Positions 1,919-57,879 of a DNA stretch of 64,000 nucleotides are shown one piece after another. The notes beneath the pieces were generated by a model. That model saw nothing but the letters and a program-made list of their open reading frames with translations. It made no database searches and was not told the origin of the DNA. Within the stretch, counting starts at the first letter, position 1. Each line of letters begins with the position of its first letter. The stretch lies in the NCBI RefSeq assembly GCF_055900595.2, contig NZ_CM148325.1; one strand, 5' to 3'. The position numbers and the translations under genes are program-made.

Positions 1919-3304
1919 ATGGCTATTAATTCACCACTGAATATTGCTGCGCAACCCGGCAAAACCCGTCTGCGAAAATCACTGAAATTGTGGCAGGTGG
2001 TGATGATGGGTCTGGCCTATCTCACGCCGATGACTGTGTTCGATACCTTTGGCATTGTTTCCGGCATTAGCGACGGTCACGTTCCGGCGTCCTATTTGCT
2101 GGCGCTGGCGGGTGTGCTGTTTACCGCGATCAGCTACGGCAAACTGGTTCGCCAGTTTCCGGAGGCCGGTTCGGCCTATACCTACGCGCAAAAGTCGATT
2201 AACCCGCACGTCGGATTTATGGTCGGCTGGTCATCGCTGCTGGATTATCTCTTTTTGCCGATGATCAACGTTTTGTTGGCGAAAATCTATCTCTCCGCCC
2301 TCTTCCCGGAAGTGCCGCCGTGGGTGTGGGTGGTAACCTTCGTCGCCATTTTAACCGCCGCGAATCTGAAGAGCGTCAACCTGGTGGCTAACTTCAATAC
2401 CCTGTTTGTGCTGGTGCAGATTTCCATCATGTTGGTGTTTATCTTCCTGGTGGTTCAGGGGCTGCATAAAGGAGAAGGCGTTGGCACCGTCTGGTCGCTT
2501 CAGCCGTTTATCAGCGAGAACGCACATCTGATCCCGATTATTACCGGGGCGACGATTGTCTGTTTCTCGTTCCTCGGTTTCGATGCGGTGACCACGCTTT
2601 CGGAAGAGACGCCGGACGCCGCACGCGTGATCCCGAAAGCCATCTTCCTGACGGCGGTATACGGCGGCATTATCTTTATCGCGGCGTCGTTCTTTATGCA
2701 GCGGTTCTTCCCGGATATCAGCCGCTTTAAAGATCCGGACGCCGCACTGCCGGAAATCGCACTGTACGTTGGCGGCAAGTTGTTCCAGTCGATTTTCCTC
2801 TGCACGACGTTTGTGAACACGTTAGCGTCTGGCCTGGCGTCACATGCCAGCGTGTCGCGTCTGCTGTATGTGATGGGGCGCGACAATGTGTTTCCGGAAC
2901 GCGTGTTTGGCTATGTGCACCCGAAATGGCGGACTCCGGCACTGAATGTCATTATGGTCGGGATTGTCGCGTTGTCAGCGCTGTTCTTTGATTTAGTCAC
3001 CGCGACAGCATTGATTAACTTCGGTGCTCTGGTGGCGTTTACCTTCGTTAACCTGTCGGTGTTTAATCATTTCTGGCGGCGTAAAGGAATGAATAAAAGC
3101 TGGAAGGATCACTTCCACTATTTGCTGATGCCGCTGGTTGGCGCGCTGACGGTGGGTGTGCTGTGGGTTAACCTCGAGTCAACGTCACTGACACTCGGTC
3201 TGGTATGGGCTTCATTAGGCGGCGCATATTTGTGGTATCTGATCCGCCGCTATCGCAAAGTGCCGTTGTATGATGGTGACAGAACGCCGGTGAGCGAAAC
3301 GTAA
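1919..3304 (+). CDS. puuP: putrescine importer, APC-family amino acid permease
   Basis: ORF 1865..3304 trimmed to ATG at 1919 ([15 protein letters not shown]...), 461 aa, polytopic membrane protein; follows puuA. Confidence 0.88.
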
Positions 3305-9326: not shown

Positions 9327-10490
9327 TTACTTTTGATTGTCGATTCTGGTGAGAGCAACCAGCAATGCCAGCGTATAACACACCGTAATTGCCAGACTCA
9401 TTTTTAACAGTGTTTCTCCGCCAATTCCCGACAATGGCGCGGCTATACCGCCGAAGACAAACATGCTCATCCCCATCAACGCAGACGCCGTTCCAGATTC
9501 CTGCGTCCCTACTGCACTCATAGCCTCTGCCCCGCCAACAGTGCCGATGCCGCTACAAAATGCGATGGTGAAAAATAATGCCACCAGTGCCGGAATGGGC
9601 AATTGTACCCATGCGCATAAGACCGTGAGCAATGCACACAAAATTGCCGCTATCAGGCCACCTCGCAACAATGTCATCGCGTTAATCCGTCGCGCCAGGC
9701 GCGAGAAGATCCATGAAGCAATGATAAGTCCGATGCCGTTAAGGCCAAACACCAGGCTAAATTGCATTGGACTAAAGCCAAATTCCTTCTGCAACACGAA
9801 CGACGAAGAGCCGATATACGCAAACAAACCGGCCAGCATAAAACTTTGAATCAGGCAAAAGCGCATAAAAAGGCGGTTCTGCACCACGCTTCGTCCGGTT
9901 AATAGCAATGATGAGCCCCTTTTATTTTCTGGCAAGGTCTCATTAATAAATAACAGGCAGCCCAGCAACAGTACGGTGCTAATTTCAGCCATTACCCAGA
10001 ATAAAGTGCGCCAGTCAAAAGTGCTAACAATGTACCCGCCCAGCACTGGCGACAACACCGGTGCCAGGCCATTCACCGTCATTAACAGCGCAAAAAACTG
10101 GGTCAACGTTACTCCCTGATATTTGTCACGAGCAATAGAACGAGAGAGCACCGAACCACCCGCCCCCGCGATCCCTTGAATAAAACGCCAGACCACCAGC
10201 CAGTAAATATTGTTCGTTGTCGCGCACAAAATGGAAGAAACAATAAACAATAGCAACGACAAGATTAACGGACGTTTACGCCCTATTTTGTCGCTCAGAG
10301 GGCCAAATAACAGTTGTCCGACGCCAAGACCGATCAGTGATGCAGTCAGGGTTAATTGCGTTATGGTCGTGGTTGCCGCCAGTTGCTCAGACATCTCCGG
10401 CAAAGCCGGCAAATAAAGATCGGTACACATCGGGCCGATACCGGCTAAAAGACCAAGAATCAATGCCCATGAAAGAGAGACTCTAGCCAT
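9327..10490 (-). CDS. MFS transporter, Bcr/CflA-like drug efflux family
   Basis: 387-aa polytopic protein with MFS motifs (GPLSDKIGRKRP); last gene of the efflux operon, 8 bp after the OMF gene. Confidence 0.75.
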   Translation of the reverse strand: MARVSLSWALILGLLAGIGPMCTDLYLPALPEMSEQLAATTTITQLTLTASLIGLGVGQLLFGPLSDKIGRKRPLILSLLLFIVSSILCATTNNIYWLVVWRFIQGIAGAGGSVLSRSIARDKYQGVTLTQFFALLMTVNGLAPVLSPVLGGYIVSTFDWRTLFWVMAEISTVLLLGCLLFINETLPENKRGSSLLLTGRSVVQNRLFMRFCLIQSFMLAGLFAYIGSSSFVLQKEFGFSPMQFSLVFGLNGIGLIIASWIFSRLARRINAMTLLRGGLIAAILCALLTVLCAWVQLPIPALVALFFTIAFCSGIGTVGGAEAMSAVGTQESGTASALMGMSMFVFGGIAAPLSGIGGETLLKMSLAITVCYTLALLVALTRIDNQK

Positions 10491-10498
10491 ATTATTCC

Positions 10499-11872
10499 TT
10501 ACTTGAGTGATGACATGCCGCCGCCCAGCGACTGCCAGAGCGTGATTCGGTTTGTAAAATCAGTCAGTTGCAGTGCCAGCAGCTCCTGCTGTGCGCTCCA
10601 CAAGCTGCGCTGCGCCGTCAACACGGTCAGGTAATCACCAACACCCGCCTGATAGCGACGCAAGCCAACATCGACCGTTTGTTGCTCAGCTTTAACATAC
10701 TGGCGCTGTGCATCCAGTTGCTCTTCAAGCGTGGTCCGCCGCGCCAGTGCGTTAGCGACATCTTTAAATGCGCTCTGAACGGTTTTTTCATAGGTGGCAA
10801 TGAGCCCACGCTTTTGTGCTTCTGCGTAACGAAGCTGCGCCAGATTACTCCCGCCAGTGAACAGCGGTAATGTGACCGATGGCGCAAATGACCAGATCTG
10901 CATTCCGTGGCTGAACAACGACGACAATGCGTCACTGCCCACACCGGCACTGGCAGTCAGCGAAATCGTCGGGAAAAAGTTAGCCCGCGCCGCGCCAATA
11001 TCTGCATTGGCGCTCTTCAAATTATGTTCCGCTTCCTGGATATCCGGGCGACGCAGCAGAACATCAGATGATACTCCCGCAGGAACCAGACTTATCATTT
11101 GTTCCGGCAGGCTTTCCAGTGTTCCCGGTAGCAGATTTTCCGCAAGCGTTGTACCTGCCAGTAAGTTCAGCGCATTTTTATCCTGCATCACTTGTGTCTG
11201 ATAGCTGGCAACGCTGGCGCGCGCTTGCTGATAAACACTCATCGCCTCACTGACATCTGTCGCTGCCGCCGTGCCAACCTGTTGCTGGCGCTGGATAATT
11301 TTCAATGAGTTTTCTGCACTGGCCATCGTTTCTTTTGCCAGGGCCAGGTTGCTGTTATCAGCCGCCAGTGTCAGCCAGGCGGTGCTGATTTCAGCAATCA
11401 GCGTTAAACGAGTGTTCTGGGCTGTAAATTCACTGGCAAGCCAGGTTTCCCGCGCCGCCCGAGATAAACTCTGATTACGACCAAACAGATCTAACGTATA
11501 ACTGGACACCGTGCCGTCAGCCTCGGCAGTTGTTCCCGTACCATTCGCCAGCGAACGACTGCGAGTCGAACTTAAGGCCGCATTCACCGTCGGAAATAAC
11601 GACGCATTAGTTTGCCCATAGAGCGCCCGTGCTGAGTCAATATCAGCAATCGCTTTTTGCACATCGCGGTTACTGTTCAGTGCAATGGTTACTACCTGCT
11701 GCAATCGGGGATCGTGGATCACCTGCTGCCAGTCATGGCTGATTGCCTTCCCCTGGCCCTGTGCTCCCGGCAAGGTCGCCGGGATTGGGGATTCAGGCGT
11801 ACTGTAGTGAGGATCGAGCGAGACACATCCCGCACTCAACAACACCAGAAAAATAAGAGAACGACGCAACAT
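10499..11872 (-). CDS. RND efflux outer-membrane factor lipoprotein (NodT/OprM family)
   Basis: 457 aa; signal peptide with lipobox LSAGC; OprM/TolC-like alpha/beta repeat translation. Confidence 0.8.
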   Translation of the reverse strand: MLRRSLIFLVLLSAGCVSLDPHYSTPESPIPATLPGAQGQGKAISHDWQQVIHDPRLQQVVTIALNSNRDVQKAIADIDSARALYGQTNASLFPTVNAALSSTRSRSLANGTGTTAEADGTVSSYTLDLFGRNQSLSRAARETWLASEFTAQNTRLTLIAEISTAWLTLAADNSNLALAKETMASAENSLKIIQRQQQVGTAAATDVSEAMSVYQQARASVASYQTQVMQDKNALNLLAGTTLAENLLPGTLESLPEQMISLVPAGVSSDVLLRRPDIQEAEHNLKSANADIGAARANFFPTISLTASAGVGSDALSSLFSHGMQIWSFAPSVTLPLFTGGSNLAQLRYAEAQKRGLIATYEKTVQSAFKDVANALARRTTLEEQLDAQRQYVKAEQQTVDVGLRRYQAGVGDYLTVLTAQRSLWSAQQELLALQLTDFTNRITLWQSLGGGMSSLK

Positions 11873-11875
11873 AAC

Positions 11876-14800
11876 TTACTCCTGACGGCGCGGTTTACCG
11901 GCAAACAAACGTTTCACCAGTACAAAAAACAGAGGAACGAAGAAAATGGCCAGTAATGTAGCGGTCAGCGTGCCGCCAATAATGCCCGTACCAATGGCGA
12001 TGCGGCTGTTCGCCCCTGCGCCGGTTGCTATCGCCAGCGGCATTACCCCCGCAATAAACGCCAGCGAGGTCATGATGATTGGGCGTAAACGAGTCTGCGC
12101 CGCGCGTAATGCCGCACGACTCAAGGAATAGCCCTCTGCAACCGCCGCTTCAGCAAATTCCACAATCAGAATGGCGTTTTTCGACGACAAGCCGATAGTA
12201 GTTAATAGCGCTACCTGGAAGTAAACGTCGTTGTTTAAATCACGCATCCAGGCCGCCAGCGCCGCGCCAAGAAGCCCCAGAGGGATCACCAGAATGACCG
12301 AGAACGGGACTGACCAGCTTTCGTACAGTGCTGCAAGGCAGAGGAAAACCACCAGAATAGAAACTGCATACAGACTTAATGCCTGACCGCTGGCCAGTTT
12401 CTCCTGCAATGACAAACCACTCCAGGCCCATGTTGTTCCCGCAGGAAGACTGTTTGCCAGTTCCTCCATTTTTGTCATTGCATCGCCGGAACTAAAGCCA
12501 GTCGCGTTTTCGCCCTGAATTTCATAGGCTGCCGAGCCGTTGTAGCGCACCAGTCTTTCCGGTCCATACAGCCAGCGGGTGGTCGCAAAAGCAGAGAATG
12601 GTGTCATGGCGTTATCGCTACCGCGCACAAACCATTTACCTAAGTCTGACGGCGCGGAACGAAATTCGCTGTCGCCCTGAATGTAGACTTTTTTCACACG
12701 ACCACGGTCAATAAAGTCATTCACATAAGTACCGCCCCACGCACTGGACAGGGTGTCGGTGACATCATTCAAACTCAACCCTAATGACACCGCTTTATTG
12801 CTATCAATATCTACCTGCAATTGCGGCATTTGTGGCAAATCATTGGCGCGTACAGAATGTAACTCCGGACTTTGATTCGCTTTTTCTATCAACTGATTAC
12901 GCATTTGCAGCAGTGTTTCACGATCGGTTCCACCGTTAGCTAACAATTCAAACGTAAAACCATTGCTTTGGCCCAGCCCATCAACGGCTGGCGGCGTCAT
13001 CGCAAATACCGTGGCATCACGAATTGTGCCCAGCTCTTTGGTAGCCCGTAGGGCGATAGCCTGGGCGGTGTTTTCTGCCCCTTTACGTTGAGACCAGTTT
13101 TTCAACGAAACAAACGCCATCCCGGTGTTCTGTCCGCTGCCGCTAAAACTGAAACCATCAACGGTAAAGATGACATCGGTATTTGCTTTCTCGTTAATCA
13201 GGAACCAGTCAACAATCTGGCGATTCACTTCTGCTGTACGGGCAGCGGTCGCCCCGGCCGGCAGCGTGTACTGCACCATGATTTCGCCCTGGTCTTCAGT
13301 GGGTAAGAAACTGCCCGGCAGTTTCCACATCATCAGGGCCATTCCACCACCCAGCACGACATAAAGCCCCATCGTTCGGGCTGCACGGCGCAGGACATAA
13401 ATTACGCCTCGCTGATATTTATCTTCAGTACGGCGGTAAAAGCGGTTAAATGCGCCGAAAAAGCCTTTTTTATGTGGCGGAACATGCTGGAGGACGGAAC
13501 CGCACAGGGCGGGAGTCAAGGTCAATGCCACCACCACGGAAAGCAGCATTGCGGAGATGATGGTGATGGAGAACTGACGATAAATTACGCCCGTAGATCC
13601 CCCAAAGAAGGCCATCGGCAGGAATACGGCTGACAACACCAGCGCAATGGCAACCAGTGCGCCAGAAATCTCGCCCATTGATTTTTCCGTGGCTTCACGC
13701 GCGGGCAACCCTTCGTCACGCATAATGCGTTCGACGTTCTCCACCACCACAATGGCATCGTCCACCAGCAAGCCGATCGCCAGCACCATTGCAAACAACG
13801 TCAGGGTATTAATCGAATAGCCAAACAACGCAAGAACGCCGAATGTGCCCAGCAAAACGACGGGGACAGCTAACGCCGGAATCAGTGTGGCACGCAGGTT
13901 TTGCAGGAATAAATACATCACGCAAACCACCAATACGATGGCTTCAAACAGCGTCTGAATTACGTCCTCTACGGAGATTTTAATAAATTCAGTGCTGTCT
14001 TTCGGGTATGCGATGTCGTATCCCTGCGGCATGTTCCGCTGGAATTCGGCAATCTTATCCTTGACCAGCGTCGCCGTATTCAGCGCATTCGCACCGGGCG
14101 AAAGCATTACAGCAACCCCGGCAGACGGGTGACCGTTAAGTTTGCCGATAGCGGTATAATCTTCACTGCCCATCTCAACGCGAGCCACATCTTTTATACG
14201 AACAACTGCGCCGTCTGACTGGCTTTTCACGATAATATTTTTGAACTGATCCACCGTCTGCAAGCGAGACTGCGCACGTACCGTTGCGGTCAGTTGCTGA
14301 GTATCCGGTGAAGGCAATGCCCCTATTTTCCCGGCAGTAACCTGCACGTTTTGCGCTTCAATAGCACTTTGCACGTCTGAAGGCATCAGCGAGTAAGACG
14401 CCAGTTTGGCCGGGTCGAGCCAGATGCGCATAGCGTATTCCGCGCCAAAGACTTGCAGACTCCCCACACCTTCAACACGCGCCAGGGGGTCCTGAACGTT
14501 ACTGACCAGCCAGTCGGCGATATCCGAACTGGAGGCTTTGTCAGTGGTGTCATACACGGCAGCAATCAGCAAAAAGTTGCTTTGTGATTTCTCCACCGTA
14601 ACACCTGTTTGCTGCACTTCGCTGGGTAGGCGCGACTCCGCCTGCTGAATTTTATTCTGCACCTGAACCTGTGCAGTATCTGGATCGGTACCTTGTTCAA
14701 AGGTCACATTAATACTGACCGAACCATCAGAGCTACTGGTTGAGCTGAAATAGAGTAAATTATCAAGCCCAGTGAGTTGTTGCTCGATAACCTGAGTCAC

Positions 14801-14983
14801 GCTGTTCTCCAGCGTTTCGGCAGAAGCACCAGTATAAGTGGCTGAAATTTTAATGGTCGGCGGTGCAACGTCAGGATATTGCGCGACGGGTAATGTGCGA
14901 ATAGCCAGAATCCCCGCCAACATAATCAAAATGGCGATAACCCAGGCAAAGACCGGGCGGCGAACAAAAAAGCGCGAAAACAT
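11876..14983 (-). CDS. RND multidrug efflux permease (AcrB/MexB-like)
   Basis: 1035 aa; N-terminus MFSRFFVRRPVFAWVIAILIMLAG and long stretches closely resemble AcrB as I recall it. Confidence 0.88.
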   Translation of the reverse strand: MFSRFFVRRPVFAWVIAILIMLAGILAIRTLPVAQYPDVAPPTIKISATYTGASAETLENSVTQVIEQQLTGLDNLLYFSSTSSSDGSVSINVTFEQGTDPDTAQVQVQNKIQQAESRLPSEVQQTGVTVEKSQSNFLLIAAVYDTTDKASSSDIADWLVSNVQDPLARVEGVGSLQVFGAEYAMRIWLDPAKLASYSLMPSDVQSAIEAQNVQVTAGKIGALPSPDTQQLTATVRAQSRLQTVDQFKNIIVKSQSDGAVVRIKDVARVEMGSEDYTAIGKLNGHPSAGVAVMLSPGANALNTATLVKDKIAEFQRNMPQGYDIAYPKDSTEFIKISVEDVIQTLFEAIVLVVCVMYLFLQNLRATLIPALAVPVVLLGTFGVLALFGYSINTLTLFAMVLAIGLLVDDAIVVVENVERIMRDEGLPAREATEKSMGEISGALVAIALVLSAVFLPMAFFGGSTGVIYRQFSITIISAMLLSVVVALTLTPALCGSVLQHVPPHKKGFFGAFNRFYRRTEDKYQRGVIYVLRRAARTMGLYVVLGGGMALMMWKLPGSFLPTEDQGEIMVQYTLPAGATAARTAEVNRQIVDWFLINEKANTDVIFTVDGFSFSGSGQNTGMAFVSLKNWSQRKGAENTAQAIALRATKELGTIRDATVFAMTPPAVDGLGQSNGFTFELLANGGTDRETLLQMRNQLIEKANQSPELHSVRANDLPQMPQLQVDIDSNKAVSLGLSLNDVTDTLSSAWGGTYVNDFIDRGRVKKVYIQGDSEFRSAPSDLGKWFVRGSDNAMTPFSAFATTRWLYGPERLVRYNGSAAYEIQGENATGFSSGDAMTKMEELANSLPAGTTWAWSGLSLQEKLASGQALSLYAVSILVVFLCLAALYESWSVPFSVILVIPLGLLGAALAAWMRDLNNDVYFQVALLTTIGLSSKNAILIVEFAEAAVAEGYSLSRAALRAAQTRLRPIIMTSLAFIAGVMPLAIATGAGANSRIAIGTGIIGGTLTATLLAIFFVPLFFVLVKRLFAGKPRRQE

Positions 14984-16104
14984 CAGGCATTGCCTCCATT
15001 AGCCTGAACTTCAACAGCCTTGACGGTCTGCCCTGAAGTGACTTTGGCAGAACCTTCAACAATCAGTCGGTCGCCGTTGTGCAGGCCGTTCAGCACCAGC
15101 CATTTATCACCATACGTTTCTCCCGTTTCGAGCGTTCGCTGCTCTACTTTATTGTCTTTATTCACCACCAGCGCAGTTGCATTGCCTTTAGCATCGCGCG
15201 TGACGCCCTGTTGAGGCGCGAGAATAGCGTTTTCCATCACGCCTTCATCGACACGAGCGCGAACAAACATTCCCGGTAATAACTGCTGTTGTGGATTGGG
15301 GAAAATTGCCCGTAATGTCACCGAACCGGTAGACTCATCCACCGCGACTTCGGTGAGTTCCAGACGCCCTTTTTCGCTGTAGGTTGTGCCATCTTCCAGA
15401 ATAAGTGAGACGCTCATGGTGTCACTGTTGGTCGCCAGTGACTGTTTACGCAGACGTAATAAATCGACACTGGAGCGAGTGAGGTCGACATACATTGTAT
15501 CCAGACCACGAATAGTCGTTAACGCTGTATCTTGCGACGCGGTCACCAGTGCGCCAGGGGTTACCGACGAAATGCCAATACGCCCCGAAATCGGCGCAGT
15601 GACCGTGGTCCAGTCAAGATTAATGCGCGCAGTTTCCAGTGCGGCTTTTTTCGCCTCTACACTGGCTTTATCTTGTGCACAGGTAGACTGAGCATCATCA
15701 GCATCCTGTTGTGAAACACCGTTCTCTTTCACCAGTCGGGCATAACGCTGCGCTTTCTGGCAATCGGCTTTTACCAGTGCCTGTGCTTGTTGTAATGCTG
15801 CCCGAGCTTCATTCCATGCAGCCTGATAACTGGCCGCATCAATCTGGTAGAGCGGCTGTCCAGCCTTGACCAGATCACCTTCCTTAAATAAGCGTTTCTG
15901 GATAATTCCCCCAACCTGCGGACGTACTTCGGCACTGAGCGCAGCACTGGTGCGTCCGGTTAATTCACTGACTACCGAGACCGGTTGAGATTTGACTGTA
16001 ACAACGCCGACTTCTGTTTCTGACGGGGATGAATTGTTACTTTGCGTATTATCACAACCAGATAAGAGCAGCATTGCCACTACAGATGTTGCTATATACT
16101 TCAT
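14983..16104 (-). CDS. RND efflux membrane fusion (periplasmic adaptor) lipoprotein
   Basis: ORF 14983..16137 trimmed to ATG at 16104 (MKYIATSVVAMLLLSGC lipobox) with GGAG RBS 8 nt upstream; AcrA-like translation. Confidence 0.8.
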   Translation of the reverse strand: MKYIATSVVAMLLLSGCDNTQSNNSSPSETEVGVVTVKSQPVSVVSELTGRTSAALSAEVRPQVGGIIQKRLFKEGDLVKAGQPLYQIDAASYQAAWNEARAALQQAQALVKADCQKAQRYARLVKENGVSQQDADDAQSTCAQDKASVEAKKAALETARINLDWTTVTAPISGRIGISSVTPGALVTASQDTALTTIRGLDTMYVDLTRSSVDLLRLRKQSLATNSDTMSVSLILEDGTTYSEKGRLELTEVAVDESTGSVTLRAIFPNPQQQLLPGMFVRARVDEGVMENAILAPQQGVTRDAKGNATALVVNKDNKVEQRTLETGETYGDKWLVLNGLHNGDRLIVEGSAKVTSGQTVKAVEVQANGGNA

Positions 16105-16131
16105 TATTTTCTCCAGGGTGAGAAATACCCT

Positions 16132-16151
16132 CCTCATTAAAATTAATGAGG
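16132..16151. promoter_or_regulatory. candidate operator palindrome upstream of the efflux operon
   Basis: cctcattaa-aa-ttaatgagg, perfect 9-bp inverted-repeat arms, about 30 bp upstream of the MFP start codon. Confidence 0.45.
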
Positions 16152-16252
16152 ATATGTCAGGGATATTCAGTTATAACGAACCCGCATCGCAAAATGAATT
16201 TCGCAATGAAATAAGGGGGATTAATATCCCCCGCTATTGGTTAATTCTGTTC

Positions 16253-16819
16253 TTATTTATTTATCAACATACTAACAATATCCTGATATATTTCCTGCAG
16301 ATGTTGTGGATCGCTTTTTTGCGGTGTTAAACGACGATAAACTGTACCTTCCATCATGGTAGCAAACACTTCAACGCAGCAACGAATGTGCTCGTCGCTA
16401 AGATGGGGATGCATTCTTTTCATATGTGCACAACCGTTAGCGAACATTCTGGCGTCAGCTTCTTCAAGCATTGCCATAACCCGCGGGTTGCGTGTGGCTT
16501 CTGCAGCCACTTCCAGCATCAGCGCGTCGTCGTCCTCATTTAAGGATTTACGCAAGGCAAGGACTTCCGGGAAGTGATCGGTACGCGCGTCAATGTCCAT
16601 TTGGGCAATACGAAAGTCGATGATACGGCGAACCATCTCTTCAATAATGGCGTCTTTGTTGGCGAAGTAACGATATATCTGACCCACGCTAAGCTGAGCT
16701 TCACTGGCAATTTGCGACATACTGGCGGCATGAAATCCGCAGCGACGAAAACACCGACGGGCGGCGTTAATGATTTCATCCTGACGCTGTTTGTGGCGTA
16801 TCTCCAGCTTGCTGGTCAT
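16253..16819 (-). CDS. TetR/AcrR-family transcriptional regulator
   Basis: ORF 16253..16840 trimmed to ATG at 16819 with AGGAGA RBS; N-terminal HTH typical of the TetR family. Confidence 0.8.
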   Translation of the reverse strand: MTSKLEIRHKQRQDEIINAARRCFRRCGFHAASMSQIASEAQLSVGQIYRYFANKDAIIEEMVRRIIDFRIAQMDIDARTDHFPEVLALRKSLNEDDDALMLEVAAEATRNPRVMAMLEEADARMFANGCAHMKRMHPHLSDEHIRCCVEVFATMMEGTVYRRLTPQKSDPQHLQEIYQDIVSMLINK

Positions 16820-16854
16820 TTCTGTCTCCTGGCCTATCACTTAGTGAGAATGAT

Positions 16855-16872
16855 CATTCTCATTTTTGCTAA
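16855..16872. promoter_or_regulatory. perfect 18-bp palindrome upstream of the tetR-family gene
   Basis: tgagaatgatcattctca is its own reverse complement; lies 36 bp upstream of the tetR start. Confidence 0.45.
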
Positions 16873-17295
16873 TTATACGTTTCTCCAAAGTAATGGAAAG
16901 TATTTTTATTTATTCATGATGCATATTCTGATAATGAAGAGATTGTGGAGATTCTGTGAAGATAGTTGACAATATTAAGTTGGAGTCAATTCATCAGAAA
17001 GACAGCGACTTATTGTCGCCAGTTCTGTTTTCATCATCAAACTTATCGGAGCTAATACGAATAGTTTCAAAGTCAGATTCTATAAGATATTTCCCCAACC
17101 TCCCCCTTGCAGGCGTCAGGAGTAGATAACGCAAAATGCTCTGTACCGCAGCTTCTCTCCGCTACAGAAAGCGCAACTATAGCCACCCACAGCCAGGTTG
17201 ATTATAATAACCGTTTATCTGTTCGTACTGTTTACTAAAACGACGAATCGCCTGATTTTCAGGCACAACAAGCATCAACAATAAGGATTAAAGCT

Positions 17296-18084
17296 ATGGG
17301 TTTTCTTTCCGGTAAGCGCATTCTGGTAACCGGTGTTGCCAGCAAACTGTCCATCGCCTACGGTATCGCTCAGGCGATGCACCGCGAAGGAGCTGAACTG
17401 GCATTCACCTACCAGAACGACAAACTGAAAGGCCGCGTAGAAGAATTTGCCGCTCAATTGGGTTCTGACATCGTTCTGCAGTGCGATGTTGCAGAAGATG
17501 CCAGCATCGACACCATGTTCGCTGAACTGGGTAAAGTTTGGCCGAAATTTGACGGCTTTGTACATTCCATTGGTTTTGCACCGGGCGATCAGCTGGATGG
17601 TGACTATGTTAACGCCGTTACTCGTGAAGGCTTCAAAATTGCCCACGACATCAGCTCCTACAGCTTCGTTGCAATGGCAAAAGCTTGCCGCTCCATGCTG
17701 AATCCGGGTTCTGCCCTGCTGACCCTTTCCTACCTTGGCGCTGAGCGCGCTATCCCGAACTACAACGTTATGGGTCTGGCAAAAGCGTCTCTGGAAGCGA
17801 ACGTGCGCTATATGGCGAACGCGATGGGTCCGGAAGGTGTGCGTGTTAACGCCATCTCTGCTGGTCCGATCCGTACTCTGGCGGCTTCCGGTATCAAAGA
17901 CTTCCGCAAAATGCTGGCTCATTGCGAAGCCGTTACCCCGATTCGCCGTACCGTTACTATTGAAGATGTGGGTAACTCTGCGGCATTCCTGTGCTCCGAT
18001 CTCTCTGCCGGTATCTCCGGTGAAGTGGTCCACGTTGACGGCGGTTTCAGCATCGCTGCAATGAACGAACTCGAACTGAAATAA
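17296..18084 (+). CDS. fabI: enoyl-ACP reductase (NADH)
   Basis: 262-aa translation [40 protein letters not shown]... is FabI. Confidence 0.95.
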
Positions 18085-25224: not shown

Positions 25225-25349
25225 TCGTAAATAAATGTCGATTATCGACTCGCAATTATAATACGCTTGATTCTGTTCAGTACGAAATAACTGAATAATA
25301 CACACAGTAAAATATTCTAAAGCCACGGATATATCCGTGGCTTTTTATG

Positions 25350-40939: not shown

Positions 40940-41296
40940 CTATAACATAACTCCGCTGGCAATAAGAAGTTTTGCCAGCTCCTCTGACGCCTGTAGACCA
41001 CTAATAAATTGAGAACGCAGGATCTCATTCCTACGCTCTAAATCCGCTTTAGAAAGAGATTTATTAGAGTATAAATCTTGTAGATGATTTCCTTTATCCA
41101 TGAAGGCATTAATAGCTTGTATTGCTGGAGCCGCCGGATCAGATGAACGCAATCTGCTTTCATTAAGATTAATTACTGCACTCAAAAATTCCTGTCTACT
41201 CTTTAATGTTTTAAATTCTATGTTTTTAGTATTTGCTCGGGCCTTATTATAGTAATAAAAATTATTGCTGATGTTCGCAAAATTATTCCAATCCAT
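40940..41296 (-). CDS. hypothetical small protein (118 aa), second gene of the islet operon
   Basis: Intact ORF 17 bp downstream of the lipoprotein gene; hydrophilic; no recognisable family. Confidence 0.5.
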   Translation of the reverse strand: MDWNNFANISNNFYYYNKARANTKNIEFKTLKSRQEFLSAVINLNESRLRSSDPAAPAIQAINAFMDKGNHLQDLYSNKSLSKADLERRNEILRSQFISGLQASEELAKLLIASGVML

Positions 41297-55146: not shown

Positions 55147-55170
55147 TACCCTTTATACCATGTCCTTATT

Positions 55171-55196
55171 GACCCCGTAATTACGGGGTCATTTTT
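55171..55196. terminator. bidirectional terminator between yciE and the ompW remnant
   Basis: gaccccgtaa / ttacggggtc perfect hairpin followed by atttttg. Confidence 0.75.
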
Positions 55197-57818: not shown

Positions 57819-57836
57819 CTCTGTACCTCATTATAT

Positions 57837-57856
57837 CCCGGGGGACTCCCCCCGGG
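57837..57856 (-). terminator. GC-rich hairpin between the adhesin gene and the downstream regulator gene
   Basis: cccgggggactccccccggg inverted repeat; no clear U-run, so it may be an attenuator or processing structure rather than a terminator. Confidence 0.35.
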
Positions 57857-57879
57857 ACAGATATCTAAATCCTGACCTG

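Follow-up and report, generated by a model that had tools for sequence, protein, structure and literature searches.

The 64,000-nucleotide stretch of DNA analysed here (the window) belongs to an E. coli chromosome, and matches E. coli chromosomes with up to 99.9% identity. Between sapF and fabI, it carries an island of five genes, all encoded on the minus strand, in the order TetR regulator, adaptor, RND pump, outer membrane channel and MFS exporter. This island has been named eefRABCD (Shen et al., Virulence 2025, PMC12482432; Pugh et al., Microb Genom 2026, PMC12817139), and the second of these reports describes the distribution of eef (PMC12817139). The eef genes form an accessory island adjoining fabI: about 2034 of 5426 complete E. 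coli genomes contain it, and the remaining complete genomes match the window from position 17173 onward only, a position that corresponds to the fabI-side edge of the island. The EefABC pump is carried mainly by infection-associated E. coli lineages. The eefRABCD island of E. coli ATCC 35218, the strain used in the published experiments (PMC12482432), is the identical locus: its genes, between sapF and fabI, follow the same order, and its operator is the same apart from one position discussed below. The primers published for ATCC 35218 match the window sequence exactly, and the two loci have a single promoter and co-transcription in common.

The first gene, eefR (16253-16819, minus strand), encodes a TetR/AcrR-family repressor of 188 amino acids, with its ATG at 16819, the start retained by PGAP, and its stop codon at 16253-16255. 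Besides the translation, this assignment is supported by the match of EefR residues ~9-90 to the NCBIfam TetR-family models, which places a TetR-type helix-turn-helix at the N-terminus, by Pfam PF00440, precomputed on EefR homologues of 60-99% identity, and by PGAP, which names the product of the identical locus TetR/AcrR family regulator. The second gene, eefA (14983-16104, minus strand), encodes a periplasmic adaptor lipoprotein of 373 amino acids according to its translation, NCBIfam and the PGAP annotation of the identical locus. Its ATG at 16104 is kept in all orthologues; a longer eefA reading frame, starting from an ATG at 16137 within the second palindrome described below (hairpin H3), is not conserved among orthologues. 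The eefA Shine-Dalgarno sequence GGAG (16111-16114, minus strand), read from the sequence, is embedded in the stretch UUCACCCUGGAGAAA, which is conserved across genera. Profile matches and PGAP further identify eefB (11876-14983, minus strand) as the RND pump, eefC (10499-11872, minus strand) as the outer membrane channel, and eefD (9327-10490, minus strand) as an MFS exporter of the Bcr/CflA type.

Two perfect palindromes lie in the intergenic regions of this locus, one upstream of eefR and the other between eefR and eefA, and an earlier note had proposed that they serve as operators, the first for the regulator gene and the second for the pump operon. The 64-kb window contains six perfect inverted repeats whose arms reach 9 nucleotides or more and whose spacer does not exceed 4, versus 1.3 ± 1.1 in 100 dinucleotide shuffles; for such a repeat to fall in either intergenic region, the probability is about 0.01. 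Chance therefore does not account for them.

The eefR promoter and its operator

The first palindrome, TGAGAATGATCATTCTCA (16845-16862, minus strand), is a perfect 9+9 palindrome that ends 25 bp upstream of the eefR ATG. The presence of an 18-bp palindrome upstream of the regulator gene, as described in the earlier note, is thus confirmed, but its position (given as 16855-16872) and its distance to the gene (given as 36 bp) needed correction. Its palindromic nature, its conservation, and the published EMSA and mutants (PMC12482432) identify this element as the EefR operator, with the consensus TGAGAAyGAtCrtTCTCA.

Scanning one genome per species yielded 48 loci with an EefR relative. An operator site, defined by at most two mismatches and a location at most 110 nt upstream of eefR, was found in 44 of these 48 loci, which represent about 15 genera. 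The outer hexamers carry no mismatch in most of the 44 sites, and the flanks are not conserved. Within the operator, positions 2-6, 11, 14, 15 and 17 are invariant in the 44 loci, whereas positions 7 and 12 are free to vary, with C/A as their most frequent combination (23/44). Because C/A cannot pair, the operator keeps its sequence and not its pairing, and conservation of this kind is what would be expected for a protein-binding site. Only 10 of the 44 orthologous sites are perfect palindromes, and the commonest form, TGAGAACGATCATTCTCA, is also that of the experimentally studied strain. At operator position 7, the window carries a T, in contrast to the C of ATCC 35218, and it is this T that makes the palindrome perfect. 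The perfection of the window 18-mer is incidental, the mark of a harmless variant.

This site has been characterized in ATCC 35218. As reported in PMC12482432, purified EefR shifts a 129-bp probe containing TGAGAACGATCATTCTCA, the specific cold probe competes for this binding, and deletion of the palindrome, or even a single base change in one half-site, abolishes the shift. In addition, an eefR promoter-gfp fusion is repressed by EefR, and qRT-PCR experiments reported in the same article (PMC12482432) showed that eefA to eefD are up 27- to 83-fold in an eefR mutant. The authors also indicate that the motif, TGAGAA-N6-TTCTCA, is unlike the other TetR-family sites characterised (PMC12482432). 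Resistance arose via eefR mutations, and the pump is described as remaining cryptic for as long as EefR is present. We found no inducer of EefR reported in the available portions of the eef literature.

Upstream of the operator lies a predicted eefR promoter (16872-16899, minus strand), composed of a -35 box TTTCCA (16899-16894), a 16-nt spacer and a -10 box TATAAT (16877-16872), which match the consensus at 10 of 12 positions. The promoter hexamers and their spacing recur at the Enterobacter and Kluyvera loci. The -10 box and the operator are separated by 9 nt in Escherichia and by 10 nt in Kluyvera, and they overlap by 1 nt in Enterobacter, suggesting that bound EefR would cover the -10 box or the start site. 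Taken together, the near-invariance of the operator in 44 loci, its adjacency to the -10 box, and the published EMSA, deletion, point mutants and GFP fusion bear out the proposal that a TetR repressor acting at the 18-bp palindrome controls its own gene. The operator and EefR autoregulation are already known (PMC12482432), so this core observation adds nothing new.

Three hairpins in the eefR-eefA spacer

The spacer between eefR and eefA measures 148 nt in the window. In the 27 loci in which eefA directly follows eefR, its length is comprised between 129 and 155 nt in 25 cases. The two exceptions are a spacer of 272 nt (locus L004) and one of 42 nt (locus L032, Klebsiella sp. BIGb0407); since the latter carries none of the hairpins described below, these must be dispensable in that lineage. 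When 26 orthologous spacers were folded singly, three hairpins, H1, H2 and H3, were recovered at matching positions each time, and all spacers were stabler than their own shuffles, with a mean z of -3.3 and a z of -3.8 for the window.

H1 (16205-16232, minus strand), detected by a terminator scan, comprises the stem-loop GGGGGAU-AUUA-AUCCCCC (16232-16215) followed by the U-rich tail UUAUUUCAUU (16214-16205). It is located 20 nt after the eefR stop, and is formed by 7 pairs, 5 of which are G-C, closed by a loop of 4 nucleotides, with a free energy, including its extension, of -13.9 kcal/mol (z = -2.9). A GC-rich stem of at least 5 bp, a short loop, an immediate U-rich tract and a position past a stop codon give it the form of an intrinsic terminator, and the scan flagged it as terminator-like in all three genera (E. 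coli, Enterobacter and Kluyvera). The orthologues carry an equivalent hairpin with a U-rich tail, this tail being poor in Phytobacter, and the U-tract of E. coli (UUAUUUCAUU) is interrupted. In an alignment fitted to the structure by a covariance model, 6 of 6 H1 pairs display compensatory changes. A GGGGGAT-TAAT-ATCCCCC hairpin just after the tetR stop had been noticed before, with coordinates off by one (the correct ones being 16215-16232), and had been suggested to be terminator-like; the scan in three genera and the compensatory changes in the stem agree with this suggestion, termination itself being predicted. It is plausible that H1 terminates eefR transcription. Termination would be incomplete, as all eefR-A-B-C-D junctions are reported to be co-transcribed, with a positive RT-PCR across eefR-eefA, indicating at least some read-through past H1 (PMC12482432). 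By eye, no segment at the 3' end of eefR was found to be complementary to H1 for an antiterminator pairing.

H2, CAUUGCGAAA-UUCA-UUUUGCGAUG (16185-16208, minus strand; -8.3 kcal/mol, z = -3.2), sits about 70-85 nt before the eefA ATG. H3, UCCUCAUUA-AUUU-UAAUGAGGA (16131-16152, minus strand; -10 kcal/mol, z = -5.0), corresponds to the second palindrome. Both H2 and H3 are devoid of a U-tract. A leader peptide that would start from an ATG conserved in the H2 3' arm was considered and rejected: neither the length nor the stop of the putative peptide is conserved, and some Kluyvera have ACG in place of the ATG. A candidate fourth hairpin, between H3 and the Shine-Dalgarno sequence, could form in two versions, AGGGU..ACCCU or UUUCUC..GAGAAA, the second of which would cover the Shine-Dalgarno sequence. 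With a z of -0.35, it is no stabler than shuffles, and its register varies between genera; its 3' side is invariant, and covariation can therefore not be used to test it.

How the three stems evolve was assessed on alignments. RNAalifold recovered H2 from a plain MAFFT alignment of the whole spacer, in which 6 of its 9 pairs are compensatory, and gave H2 only, as the two arms were misaligned for both H1 and H3. For this reason, we derived a covariance model from the alignment of the Enterobacter group, annotated with the three stems, and used it to re-align 29 spacers; a first covariance-model alignment, in which three spurious low-scoring matches were present, was set aside. In the 29-sequence alignment, 93% of the cells contain standard pairs, against 44-58% when the partners are slid by 1-3 columns, 23 of the 25 pairs have changed on both sides, and double-change cells number 118, versus 15-21 with slid partners. 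None of 500 shuffles reached the observed pairing values. For H2, compensatory changes affect 9 of 10 pairs, with 95.7% of cells paired; for H3, 8 of 9 pairs have changed on both sides, with 96.1% of cells paired. These pair counts come from an alignment fitted to the structure by the covariance model, which favours pairing. This bias is attenuated, though not eliminated, by the folds of single sequences and by the control with slid partners, both of which speak for a genuine signal. With compensatory changes above the controls, what is conserved in H1-H3 is the structure rather than the sequence.

A search of Rfam with positions 15900-17400 at a permissive threshold returned a best match of <20 bits (E >1), far below gathering scores. 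The available text of the two eef papers (PMC12482432, PMC12817139) makes no mention of a terminator, hairpin or stem-loop in the eefR-eefA spacer.

The second palindrome

At the DNA level, the second palindrome, cctcattaa-aa-ttaatgagg, is found at 16132-16151, as previously indicated, and extends to a perfect 10-2-10 repeat (16131-16152) located 26 bp upstream of the eefA ATG, and not about 30 bp. A hairpin at the H3 position is present in all 26 orthologous spacers folded singly, its 3' end being 16-32 nt, typically 21-28 nt, before the eefA ATG. The sequence of the stem differs between genera, and its pairing is kept: the two arms are CCUCAUUAA/UUAAUGAGG in Escherichia, CCCUGUUAA/UUAACAGGG in Enterobacter, UCUCGUUAA/UUAACGGGA in Lelliottia, CCUCGC/GCGAGG in Kluyvera, CCCCGU/ACGGGG in Dryocola, and GCCUGUU/AACGGGC in Phytobacter. 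The innermost pair or the loop is broken in some E. coli strains (L050, L051).

The earlier note regarded this palindrome as the operator of a separately repressed pump promoter, which implies that EefR binds it, or recognizes it by a second binding mode, at an eefABC promoter of its own, H1 fully terminating the upstream transcript. The repeat is perfect, improbable by chance, and close to eefA, H1 is terminator-like, and Shen et al. speculate on native promoter elements upstream of eefA (PMC12482432). A pattern scan further revealed a near-operator, TGAGGA-GGGTAT-TTCTCA (16119-16136, minus strand), which has a single mismatch to the operator and overlaps the 3' arm of H3, for an expectation of 0.09 one-mismatch matches per window. 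However, the palindrome itself does not fit the operator motif TGAGAA-N6-TTCTCA, and its sequence varies although EefR and the true operator are conserved. In the published EMSA (PMC12482432), a competitor referred to as "nonspecific" did not displace EefR. The primers used for this competitor map exactly to 16105-16125 and 16231-16250 of the window, and the resulting 146-bp fragment (16105-16250) is therefore the whole eefR-eefA spacer, including the H3 palindrome and the H1 hairpin. The competition, performed with cold probe at 1x and 2x only, excludes that EefR has a comparable affinity for the spacer, and is still compatible with weak binding.

The near-operator does not modify this picture. 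Its mismatch, A5-to-G, is identical to the change in the MT-1 probe that lost EefR binding (PMC12482432), it is located inside the non-competing fragment, and its TTCTCA half, present in 7 of 7 E. coli compared (the window and six other chromosomes), is absent from one divergent E. coli, from E. whittamii and E. albertii, and from all other genera. Because it carries the MT-1 change, lies in a fragment that does not compete, and has its second half-site in E. coli proper only, it is probably non-functional. Regarding the promoter that such an operator would control, a consensus scan detected no promoter-like site on the eef strand of the E. coli, Enterobacter or Kluyvera spacer. The pump genes share a transcript with eefR, and their rise on loss of EefR is that of genes whose repressor is bound only at the eefR promoter.

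We conclude that the second palindrome is not an operator but the last of the three RNA hairpins conserved in the spacer. Its sequence is not kept when its pairing is, no promoter is predicted beside it, and the fragment that contains it does not compete for EefR (PMC12482432). The separately repressed pump promoter finds no support in the RT-PCR data or in the scan of the spacer in three genera. Finally, the puzzle of one TetR protein facing two different motifs vanishes, since only one of the two palindromes is a protein-binding site.

Control of the operon and related systems

Taken together, these data make it very probable that the eefRABCD control region consists of one promoter and one EefR operator, plus a spacer with three RNA hairpins, of which H1 acts as a partial attenuator. 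A sigma-70 promoter upstream of eefR drives all five genes, and EefR, by binding to 16845-16862 over the start region, represses eefR and, via co-transcription, eefA to eefD. The RT-PCR results of PMC12482432 and the dependence of eefA to eefD on EefR are both explained by read-through from the eefR promoter. Once transcribed, the 148-nt spacer folds into H1-H3, and it would contain no second promoter-operator region. H1 would be an intrinsic terminator working as a partial attenuator, in which case more eefR message than pump message would be made, and pump expression would depend on read-through. In the read-through RNA, H2 and H3 are located just upstream of the eefA ribosome-binding site, where they most likely act on RNA, either by shielding the eefABCD message, once processed, against 5' decay, or by making the eefA start region accessible to ribosomes. 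Both roles would fit with the observation that cloned eefAB, eefABC and eefABCD depend on sequences upstream of eefA for their resistance phenotype (PMC12482432).

The conserved three-hairpin spacer is the sole new element of this work, a modest, testable addition. It provides a testable reason for the pump staying cryptic relative to the repressor, as well as for the need of constructs to include the native sequence upstream of eefA, a point disputed between the two groups working on EefABC. In the simplest case, eefA would just need the leader in cis, for its translation or for the stability of its message. We consider this a tenable proposal, although one that we would not yet favour; if true, it would explain the disagreement between Shen et al. 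and Pugh et al. on the resistance conferred by cloned eefABC.

Other readings of the spacer fare less well. A weak constitutive promoter might be located downstream of H1, H2 and H3 then being the 5' leader of a separate eefABCD transcript made besides read-through. The report of K. aerogenes eefABC without eefR (PMC12817139) implies that eefA can have its own promoter, H1 is terminator-like, and the clones need the eefA upstream sequence; among the EefA homologue matches listed, which come from Escherichia and Shigella only, there is none of the eefABC loci reported without eefR in K. aerogenes and K. pneumoniae. With no sigma-70-like site in the spacer in E. coli, Enterobacter and Kluyvera, and with a pump of very low basal expression described as cryptic until EefR is lost, this internal promoter is unlikely. 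Slightly more speculative still, and improbable in our view, is the idea that the spacer is a signal-responsive attenuator or leader, in which read-through at H1 or exposure of the eefA ribosome-binding site would shift with a cellular signal, which could be translation slowed by the ribosome-targeting drugs that the pump exports. If true, this would add a second, RNA-level control on a pump thought to be switched only by EefR.

It is very unlikely that the second palindrome serves as the DNA target of another dimeric regulator, encoded outside the island and modulating the pump. A perfect AT-rich 10-2-10 palindrome near the eefA start, the H-NS silencing of Klebsiella aerogenes eefABC cited in PMC12817139, and the possible unidentified regulators mentioned by Shen et al. 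(PMC12482432) are in line with such a regulator, but from one genus to another both partners have changed at 8 of the 9 positions of the stem, which is the signature of a base-paired strand and not that of a conserved recognition sequence, and the innermost pair or the loop is broken in the E. coli strains mentioned above. The second EefR operator, the least credible of these explanations, is already largely refuted, and the idea can be set aside on comparative and published experimental evidence.

In its repressor, eefRABCD, with its single promoter and operator, resembles well-known efflux systems. TetR/tetA, AcrR/acrAB and QacR/qacA each rely on a repressor with an N-terminal helix-turn-helix, which binds a palindromic operator overlapping the promoter and is autoregulated, and EefR shares this scheme. 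Classical TetR-family efflux repressors are usually encoded divergently from the pump, with one shared intergenic region. By contrast, EefR is encoded by the first gene of the operon it represses. Such a regulator-first layout is found in the emrRAB and marRAB operons of E. coli, in which a promoter-proximal repressor acts at a single operator region and the effectors are co-transcribed; these repressors belong to the MarR family, whereas EefR is a member of the TetR family. To our knowledge, no conserved three-hairpin spacer between regulator and pump has been described in emrRAB or marRAB operons. For the spacer, the closest parallel is provided by the intercistronic attenuators and stem-loops by which operons adjust the relative expression of their genes, such as the differential mRNA stability of the papBA type. 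The eef spacer is similar to such intercistronic elements in that the first cistron is followed by a GC-rich hairpin with a U-rich tail, further stable hairpins immediately precede the next ribosome-binding site, and the stems are kept by compensatory changes.

Operator centre and near-copies of the operator

The centre of the EefR operator, the 18-bp palindrome TGAGAA-N6-TTCTCA, is a GATC, the Dam methylation site, in 38 of the 44 loci that carry the motif (L002-L048); in the window it lies at 16852-16855. Two further sites match the operator pattern with a single mismatch. One of them, TGAGGA-GGGTAT-TTCTCA (16119-16136), is located between the conserved hairpin H3 and the eefA Shine-Dalgarno sequence, and its mismatch is the same A-to-G change as in the mutated operator probe MT-1, which Shen et al. 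(PMC12482432) describe as non-binding. The TTCTCA half of this near-operator is restricted to E. coli proper. The second match, TGAGAACGCAGGATCTCA (41010-41027), falls within an open reading frame on the minus strand (40940-41296) and is probably due to chance.

The window has four other perfect inverted repeats. Those at 25319-25344 (13+13) and 55170-55191 (11+11) look like bidirectional terminators, and two others have a 9-1-9 (13307-13325) and a 9-4-9 (57836-57857) arrangement.

Start of eefA and the eefR-eefA spacer

Many database entries give EefA as a protein of 384 residues, corresponding to a start at the ATG 16135-16137, which falls inside the H3 3' arm and lacks conservation beyond the genus Escherichia. 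The PGAP annotation and the alignment support ATG 16104 as the eefA start, yielding an EefA of 373 residues.

In Escherichia sp. MOD1-EC7003 (L004), a 124-nt ERIC-like repeat (3081-3204) is inserted between the eefR stop codon and H1, with all three hairpins intact downstream. The spacer of Klebsiella sp. BIGb0407 (L032, 3062-3103) is just 42 nt long and lacks H1, H2 and H3, and the operator is retained upstream despite this hairpin-free spacer. In Kluyvera georgiana (L008, L009), the eefR-eefD spacer contains a perfect hairpin, GGGGTTA-ACGC-TAACCCC (~3165-3185), some 30 nt upstream of the eefD start, a position that echoes that of H3.

Island edge and regulator-MFS loci

Toward fabI, the eef island ends 123 bp ahead of the fabI start, at 17173. 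In genomes devoid of the island, the match to the window starts only at 17173; the fabI promoter region is therefore shared with them, whereas the eefR promoter is part of the island.

In Kluyvera georgiana, Kosakonia, Erwinia, Pantoea, Winslowiella, Lonsdalea and Brenneria, eefABC is absent and the eefR homologue is directly followed by an eefD-like MFS gene (L008, L009, L020, L022, L025-L030, L036, L039, L040, L042, L044, L047). Among these loci, no operator motif was found upstream of the eefR homologue in L028, L036, L042 and L044; most still carry it. The regulator-MFS pair seems to be the older arrangement, and eefABC seems to have been inserted between its two genes.
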